Shown: one piece after another, positions 4,549 through 4,884 of the stretch
Numbering within the stretch: the first letter of the stretch is position 1
Layout of the letters: each line of letters starts with the position of its first letter
Origin: a virus
Taxonomy: Duplodnaviria; Heunggongvirae; Uroviricota; Caudoviricetes
DNA: 6,857 nucleotides
IMG/VR virus record: IMGVR_UViG_2529292836_000013
Direction: 5' to 3' (one strand)
Notes under the pieces: model-generated
Databases searched by the model: none
The model's input: only the letters and a program-made list of their open reading frames with translations
What the model was told of the DNA's origin: nothing
Translations under genes and position numbers: made by a program

Positions 4549-4884
4549 TTATGGACTTTGTTGTTTTAGTCCATAAGGACATATTTGCAGAGTGCAACGG
4601 TTATTAAAGCATTCATTCAATACGTTATCTGTATTTGTAGGACATTCCTGGCTGTTTTTGATTAAATTCCAGAATGTTTTATTGAATGGTACTACGTTGT
4701 AAATGGTTACAGGTAGCACTTTGTTATTGAGCATGATACCTGTGTGAGTCAGTGTAAATATACTTTCAGGAGGTAAGAAAGCATCCGATTGATACCAGAT
4801 TATTAATTTTATTTTACTCCATATGACTGAAAAAGATATTCCGCATGATGGCTGGATAACTGTATCAATCACAATCCACTTCAT
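4549..4884 (-). CDS. Hypothetical protein, 111 aa, orphan moron gene transcribed against the late operon
   Basis: ATG at 4884 (minus strand) preceded by AAGGAAG 4 nt upstream. AT-rich, with an AT-rich promoter-like region at 4885-5000. Translation [41 protein letters not shown]... has several Cys and no motif I recognise. Confidence 0.55.

Follow-up and report, generated by a model that had tools for sequence, protein, structure and literature searches.

The open reading frame at 4549-4884 of the DNA analysed here (a stretch of 6,857 nucleotides, referred to as the window) is very probably iraL, a lysogenic-conversion gene (or 'moron') that a lambdoid prophage carries in its late region and whose product is an anti-adaptor of RssB. 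The protein agrees with IraL of uropathogenic E. coli CFT073 (c1429, locus C_RS06710, WP_000871291.1) at 111 of 111 amino acids, and the coding DNA at 334 of 336 nucleotides, both changes being synonymous. Hryckowian et al. count a gene as iraL if its entire coding region is at least 95% identical to that of CFT073 iraL, a threshold that these figures exceed.

The identification in itself is no new knowledge. The gene c1429 of CFT073 was named iraL (PMC12890032; PMC4045071) and was characterised in 2014, and automated annotation already gives the IraM-family label: PGAP calls the identical sequence in NZ_CP115984.1 'anti-adapter protein IraM', under the accession WP_000871291.1. In PMC4045071 the gene's location goes by the name 'the potB genomic island', and an antisense position in a late operon is not mentioned. 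To call the gene a moron is a fair but small refinement of what was known, not a discovery.

The gene and its place in the prophage

The first-pass annotation of this DNA had put a 111-aa gene on the minus strand, with a good Shine-Dalgarno sequence (AAGGAAG) and an AT-rich region upstream, oriented against late transcription, and on these points it was right. The ORF listing of the window gives the frame (Table 1); neither strand has a larger ORF overlapping it, and the plus-strand ORFs that cross it are none of them longer than 46 aa. The Shine-Dalgarno sequence in CFT073 and in most alleles is AAGGAAA. The ORF together with 245 nt upstream makes up an AT-rich island, with a GC fraction of 0.31-0.33 (4550-5149) against about 0.48-0.52 on both sides of it. 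The 111 amino acids include a C-terminal extension, QQSP.

Might the frame have arisen by chance, or might the functional element sit on the plus strand? Nothing speaks for this save the a priori possibility. In DNA of such composition, the chance of a stop-free run of at least 111 codons is about 2.4e-4 at each frame start. When the 601-nt island was shuffled 5000 times, only 35 of the shuffles gave a run as long as the iraL ORF in any of the six frames. Given also the small size of the overlapping plus-strand ORFs (all at most 46 aa), a dN/dS of 0.1-0.18, an ORF intact at 111 of 113 loci (both below) and a solved structure of a homologue (8TWD), the probability of a chance frame is negligible.

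Table 1. Coordinates of iraL, its signals and the neighbouring prophage features in the window
Feature	Position	Strand	Basis and remarks
Late antiterminator Q homologue	2420..3241	+	PF03589, E 6e-55; 'antitermination protein' annotation; sets direction of late transcription
Candidate late promoter, TTGATT-16 nt-TAAATT with TG	3247-3275	+	Read by eye; below the scan's 9/12 threshold
Terminator directly downstream of Q	3322-3341, then T-run	+	Terminator scan; precedes the tRNA genes
Phage-borne tRNA, CAT anticodon	3385-3460 or 3561-3635 (pair)	+	ARAGORN, Met; PGAP, tRNA-Ile
Phage-borne tRNA-Arg(TCT)	the other of 3385-3460 / 3561-3635	+	Between Q and the late genes
STnc100 sRNA gene	4334..4523	+	Rfam RF02076, 132.4 bits (gathering score 47), E 7.5e-30
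STnc100 intrinsic terminator	4493-4514, then T-run	+	Terminator scan; 25-35 nt between its end and the stop codon of iraL
Perfect 12-bp inverted repeat, 10-nt loop	4546-4557 / 4568-4579	-	Repeat search; last codons and stop of iraL
iraL CDS	4549..4884	-	ORF listing; ATG start, 111 aa, stop codon 4549-4551
5' untranslated leader, 33 nt	4885..4917	-	Start at 4917 by homology to CFT073 RACE
Shine-Dalgarno, AAGGAAG	4895-4889	-	Read from sequence; 4 nt 5' of the ATG at 4884-4882
Putative -10-like element, TATACT	4930-4925	-	Position relative to the RACE start; alternative TACTTT 4928-4923
Putative -35-like element, TTTATA	4951-4946	-	CFT073 has TTTACA; promoter region 4923..4951
Lysis genes (holin, YdfR/DUF1327, lysozyme)	5641..6592	+	Pfam and PGAP on identical NZ_CP115984.1
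Class II holin (P21-type)	5641-5856, within ORF 5536-5856	+	Pfam
YdfR/DUF1327	5861-6211	+	Pfam
Lysozyme	6275 to ~6593	+	Pfam and PGAP annotation; cut by IS66-family element

The whole window is 100% identical to part of the chromosome of E. coli NCCP 13717 (NZ_CP115984.1, 2865042-2871898, reverse strand). From 1 to 6593 it agrees at 99-100% with numerous other E. coli chromosomes, whose matches end at 6593. The gene order is lambdoid: hokD/sok, DUF968, rusA, Q, two tRNAs, DUF3927, iraL, DUF1737, holin, YdfR and lysozyme. Since Q, the holin, YdfR/DUF1327 and the lysozyme all lie on the plus strand (as does the nearby DUF1737 gene), iraL is antisense to the late operon. The candidate promoter and the terminator that follow Q (3247-3341) presumably correspond in their layout to pR'/tR' of lambda, and a late-control arrangement of this type is likely.

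Other features of the left part of the window may be recorded here. A hokD toxin gene occupies 94-249 (+), and at 1-96 there is a match to a sok-type antisense RNA, to its 3' part only, cut by the window edge and scoring below the Rfam gathering score. An ORF of 117 aa at 3748-4101 (+) matches phrog_2873, a family of unknown function (E 3.5e-70), and has been left unannotated by PGAP in the identical genomes; it contains a terminator-like hairpin at 3937-3955.

The prophage is decaying. ISCro1, an element of the IS66 family (the C-terminus of the transposase is at 6622-6831 on the minus strand), interrupts the lysozyme gene at about 6593, and the DUF968 gene is frameshifted into the overlapping ORFs 988-1632 and 1491-2036. 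iraL is intact although the prophage around it decays. In CFT073 the gene occupies the same slot (Q, tRNAs, DUF3927, STnc100, iraL in antisense, DUF1737, holin) and encodes the same protein under the same RefSeq accession; the mapped 5' end, the -10 and the length of the leader are also the same. The two differ in that CFT073 carries an IS200 and three tRNAs upstream of iraL and has its prophage at potB, while the prophage of the window has the frameshifted DUF968 and the IS66-type insertion in the lysozyme gene.

In promoter, composition and placement the gene thus shows the architecture of a moron, as had been proposed for it: a separately transcribed AT-rich cassette placed in antisense between the antiterminator and the lysis genes. 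It has its own promoter (by homology to the RACE result), a low-GC island and the same antisense placement within the late operon in phage as well as prophage records; a canonical terminator of its own, which such a cassette should also have, was not found (below).

Family, fold and function of the protein

The protein had been described as an orphan in which no domain was recognisable, and as regards the local copy of Pfam the second statement is true: that copy gives no match to it, even at E <= 10. The local PmrD model (PF11183.13) misses IraL at the same threshold yet detects PmrD itself, whereas precomputed labels assign PF11183.15 (PmrD) to 19 of 20 homologues. The protein looks devoid of domains in Pfam because the versions of the PmrD model differ, and the empty local result explains the earlier impression. 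Other collections recognise the protein: the IraM model of NCBIfam (NF007393) scores 162 bits against a cut-off of 121, with residues 1-110 on profile positions 1-113/114; PHROGs gives phrog_4407; and phmmer finds PDB 8TWD (IraM residues 1-78 with RssB), chain A, at E 9e-32. K-12 IraM is 62% identical over 107 aa without a gap. Remote-homology search and structure prediction, two of the checks named in the first-pass annotation, thus lead to the IraM family and to the fold of 8TWD. The orphan status is refuted: the protein is IraL, within a family of anti-adaptors (IraM/IraL/RssC) that includes a solved homologous structure.

An AlphaFold2 model (16 family members) is confident for residues 1-78 (pLDDT about 80-94), placing strands within 2-66 and a helix at 69-77, and unconfident for residues 81-111 (tail pLDDT below 50). 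Residues 1-78 are predicted by the model to form a PmrD-like antiparallel beta-barrel with a C-terminal helix. Foldseek's best match to it is 8twd_A (TM-target 0.90, rmsd 1.3 A), and the next matches are to PmrD (4hn7), with TM-target of 0.70-0.73 and an identity of 14-15%. IraM has been described as having a PmrD-like fold followed by a flexible, less conserved tail (PMC10844676).

In the crystal structure of IraM with RssB, three clusters of residues touch RssB: cluster I contacts the receiver domain at its alpha4-beta5-alpha5 face, which sigma-S would occupy, and clusters II and III the C-terminal domain and the linker (PMC10844676). All five residues of cluster I are the same in IraL (I4, I6, W22, K26, I42). 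Cluster II retains three of five, the other two being conservative changes (T13S, C14, F18, W30, L75I), and cluster III two of four (I61, Y62, H63N, I64V). Full conservation of the contacts is therefore found only for those to the N-terminal domain, and by analogy with IraM, IraL probably binds RssB through its cluster I residues. This pattern would fit the report that IraL binds RssB's N-terminal domain alone, a link that we infer from the comparison with IraM.

The tail has features of its own. Cys81, Cys92, Cys97 and Cys102 and a CPYG motif are invariant in family members down to 53% identity, and the stretch that holds the conserved cysteines (residues 81-105; 4570-4644 on the minus strand) was modelled as disordered and was removed for crystallography. 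The cysteine tail may be a metal site needed for function or stability, or else a redox element.

The function of the identical protein in CFT073 has been established experimentally. A library of CFT073 yielded iraL, which increases sigma-S-dependent expression (Hryckowian et al. 2014, mBio 5:e01043-14, PMC4045071). Its deletion from CFT073 and from Shigella sonnei lowers sigma-S in log phase, sigma-S's half-life in log-phase CFT073 being about 5 min with iraL and about 2.5 min without it; iraL with its native promoter (a promoter fragment from -100 to +33) restores the half-life, and the same fragment raises log-phase sigma-S in K-12 (PMC4045071). Two-hybrid tests found that IraL binds RssB through the N-terminal (receiver) domain only, unlike IraM (PMC4045071). 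The start of the transcript was mapped by 5' RACE and the promoter judged to be of the sigma-70 type (PMC4045071). The mRNA appears in RNA-seq of CFT073, where it is up by 1.6 log2 at 37 C (PMC12890032), and a fur mutant has higher levels of IraL (PMC7157518). The prediction of the first-pass annotation that the gene would be expressed from the prophage is borne out, for the identical protein of CFT073 in normal growth, by the RACE start, complementation with the promoter fragment and RNA-seq (PMC4045071, PMC12890032).

Two other functions have to be weighed. One is that the protein serves mainly as a PmrD-like connector acting on another response regulator, whether PmrA or one relevant to the phage, instead of on RssB. 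PmrD (PF11183; 4HN7, 2JSO) shares the unusual fold of a beta-barrel and a helix, and like IraM and IraL it binds the receiver domain of a protein of the response-regulator type (PMC10844676); newer Pfam files the homologues under PF11183; and with RssB a response regulator itself, other receiver domains are conceivable as targets. However, PmrD acts on PmrA, not RssB, and has no Cys-rich tail, the identity between the two is only 14-15%, the local PmrD HMM gives no match, and the identical protein binds RssB and alters the stability of sigma-S in vivo. The connector role is for these reasons very unlikely. The other function, implied by a test against a phage panel that the first-pass annotation had proposed, is defence against phages or exclusion of superinfecting ones. 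In position, orientation and AT-richness iraL resembles the usual accessory gene of a prophage, a group that includes defence genes, but a search of PADLOC-DB with the protein returned 0 defence families at E <= 0.1, and the idea was dropped because of that result. The identical protein moreover has a different function established by experiment, the stabilisation of host sigma-S, and members of the family occur outside intact prophages (K-12 iraM, for example). A part in defence is more improbable still.

With the protein taken as an anti-adaptor of RssB, events in the lysogen might run as follows. iraL would be transcribed from its own sigma-70 promoter, opposite the silent late operon, as shown in CFT073 and as the sequence would have it here. 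The 111-aa product would fold into the PmrD-like barrel (residues 1-78) and the Cys-rich tail, as shown for IraM and as predicted here, and would bind the N-terminal receiver domain of RssB, as the two-hybrid result with IraL has it, using contact residues extrapolated from IraM. RssB would then be unable to pass sigma-S (RpoS) on to ClpXP (shown in CFT073 and presumed for the strain of the window), and the expression of general-stress genes would rise in growing cells. On induction, Q-antiterminated transcription would run head-on through iraL, antisense to it. It is plausible from the geometry that Q-dependent late transcription then collides with iraL and silences it; iraL would therefore be a gene of the lysogenic phase.

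Promoter, 3' end and the neighbouring STnc100

The 5' end of CFT073 iraL found by 5' RACE reads ACATCACCAGCAAGGCATAAACAAGGAAACCA (PMC4045071). The window, from 4917 downwards on the minus strand, reads ACATCACCAGCAAGGCATAAACAAGGAAGCTA, with 30 of 32 bases matching that end. The leader of 33 nt that results is consistent with the complementing fragment of PMC4045071, which spans '-100 to +33'. An alignment of 661 nt with CFT073 shows few differences: besides the two synonymous ones in the CDS there are four in the promoter and leader, namely C->T at 4947 (in the -35), G->A at 4918 (position -1) and two near the Shine-Dalgarno sequence. The start site and the -10 are identical. The assignment of both hexamers (Table 1) is putative, being read from the sequence; taken as such, the -35-like hexamer matches TTGACA at 4/6 positions in the window (TTTATA) and at 5/6 in CFT073 (TTTACA).

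Among 113 viral contigs the -35 hexamer varies, but the -10 and the start site do not. In the majority it is TTTACA followed by A or T; 19 have a 1-nt deletion, and only 7 have the TTTATA of the window. The exact 61-nt promoter of the window is found in 284 of 1438 iraL-positive complete genomes, and that of CFT073 in 32. The hexamer is thus a hot-spot of polymorphism with three variants, which could explain differences between strains in log-phase RpoS.

The variation also bears on the allele at hand, which may truly be iraL and yet be weak or silent, its -35 impaired by the C->T change, and so be carried as passive cargo of a decaying prophage. The match of 4/6 as against 5/6 in CFT073, the minority status of TTTATA (7 of 113 viral contigs, with the exact 61-mer in 284 of 1438 genomes) and the degraded state of the surrounding prophage all favour such a reading, as does the report that some strains carry a -35 point mutant of iraL, expression there being unknown (PMC4045071, which mentions JJ1886 iraL2). 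Against it, the -10, start site, leader and CDS are intact, the Shine-Dalgarno sequence is if anything stronger (AAGGAAG versus AAGGAAA), and the allele has been kept with an intact ORF in hundreds of genomes. Besides, -35 elements with four matches of six are common among active promoters. A weak or silent allele seems unlikely, though clearly less so than either of the alternative functions considered above.

The RACE-supported promoter of iraL was missed by the promoter scan, and the sites that it placed at 4992-4964 and 4833-4806 (-) were discarded, such sites occurring at chance frequency. IraM is controlled by PhoP, and for this reason PhoP boxes were sought. A direct repeat resembling one, TGTTTATTGTTTATTTA, occupies 4980-4996 (+), some 63-79 nt upstream of where iraL transcription starts, with one mismatch to KGTTTA-N5-KGTTTA. 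It may be an AT-rich coincidence, because shuffles give as many matches as the window does, and no PhoP box is claimed.

At the other end of the gene, the 12-bp inverted repeat is a candidate 3' stem-loop of the iraL mRNA. The RNA of 4530-4600 (-) folds with -20.4 kcal/mol (z -4.3), and no good U-tract follows the stem-loop of 4546-4579. The repeat spans the last codons of the gene, which accounts for the QQSP extension of IraL. The repeat may act as a terminator, stabilise the RNA, or have no role. Terminator candidates at this end are two, this stem-loop, which has no U-tract, and the STnc100 terminator read in reverse, neither of them canonical.

iraL and STnc100 are convergent, tail to tail. 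The STnc100 terminator lies downstream of iraL in all 80 loci with the best protein matches. The pairing recurs in Stx2c phage 1717, where STnc100 (at 5335-5546 of the excerpt from that locus) is separated by 10 nt from the stop codon of an allele with 75% identity that follows directly on stx2AB; the pair has been kept here even at 75% protein identity, with synonymous sites saturated. E. albertii has a convergent pairing with two copies of STnc100 (excerpt 4362-4550 and 4826-5019). STnc100 is absent beside iraM of K-12 or Shigella and beside the Citrobacter homologue. Perhaps iraL and STnc100 belong together as a conserved convergent module of two genes whose 3' ends lie 10-35 nt from each other, but this is a tentative idea and rather doubtful. 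Should iraL transcripts extend into the STnc100 terminator, or vice versa, each RNA would be antisense to the other, and if the module is real, the output of a prophage sRNA and read-through in the late region would be coupled to the stabilisation of host sigma-S.

Conservation and the related alleles

Of 5426 complete E. coli genomes, 1446 (about 27%) have the iraL CDS at an identity of at least 90%, and nearly all of these copies are full-length. A first tally of intactness and of synonymous-only change used the 80 best protein matches; the sample is circular because its loci had been chosen for protein identity, and it was replaced by one anchored in the flank, consisting of IMG/VR loci taken by the conserved downstream flank, 113 of them with enough sequence. 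The first-pass annotation had named disruption of the ORF in close relatives with conserved flanks as one observation that would count against the gene. What was found is an intact ORF of 111 aa at 111 of the 113 loci, 74 of which encode the identical protein.

Three classes of alleles can be compared: iraL, K-12 iraM and the gene of the Stx2c phages. dN/dS among them is 0.10-0.18 (0.18 for iraL against K-12 iraM and 0.105 for iraL against the Stx2c-phage allele), values that are approximate because synonymous sites are near saturation. Comparisons of this kind indicate that iraL evolves under purifying selection. The range of the family is narrow: a scan of one genome per species found it in Escherichia, Shigella and one Citrobacter, and peptide patterns did not recover RssC of Salmonella in that scan. 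There is also a weak match to a Salmonella phage.

IraM of K-12 (YcgW/ElbA; 8TWD; CFT073 IraL was likewise formerly ycgW) has the same fold as IraL at 62% identity, with cluster I and all five cysteines shared, and the same target and outcome, RssB and the stabilisation of sigma-S. It differs in its contacts and in its regulation. IraM touches both domains of RssB, IraL reportedly the N-terminal domain only, and IraM is induced by Mg2+ starvation (PMC4045071; PMC10844676). K-12 iraM is without the QQSP extension, the 3' inverted repeat and an adjacent STnc100. Similarity between the two genes at the DNA level (71% nt) ends at the boundaries of the CDS, and since it is confined there, the promoters must be regarded as unrelated, in agreement with the differing regulation.

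Shared flanks were sought that would mark iraM as left over from this prophage slot, and only the CDS aligns. In K-12, iraM and its neighbour ycgX (region 1211413-1213107) follow the icdC pseudogene and begin where e14, as annotated, has already ended on its right side (1211412). The nucleotide identity of ycgX (DUF1398) to ydfO of the prophage that carries iraL in CFT073 is about 70%, which is suggestive, not conclusive. The arrangement suggests that iraM belongs to a separate prophage relic and is not 'on e14', as the literature states.

IraD and IraP are functional analogues, inhibiting RssB and stabilising sigma-S, but they have no sequence relationship to IraL and differ from it in their inducing signals and modes of binding (PMC4045071).

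The third class is the IraM-like gene of Stx2/Stx2c phages (gp43 of 1717, and phage 2851), about 72-75% identical to IraL. Like iraL it is antisense in the late region and convergent with STnc100. It differs in having 107 aa, no C-terminal extension and two extra cysteines, and it is found directly downstream of stx2AB and upstream of an esterase gene of the nanS-p type. In phage 1717 gp43 is at 5001-5324 of the excerpt, and some 40 other records of Stx2/Stx2c phages carry this class of allele, mostly unannotated. The literature searched contained no functional study of it. A third class of IraM/IraL alleles exists in inducible Stx2 phages, antisense beside the toxin genes.

The importance of iraL lies in what it does to the host. 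By stabilising RpoS in growing cells, a gene carried by a prophage rewires the general stress response of the bacterium, and it is in uropathogenic E. coli and Shigella that iraL is enriched.
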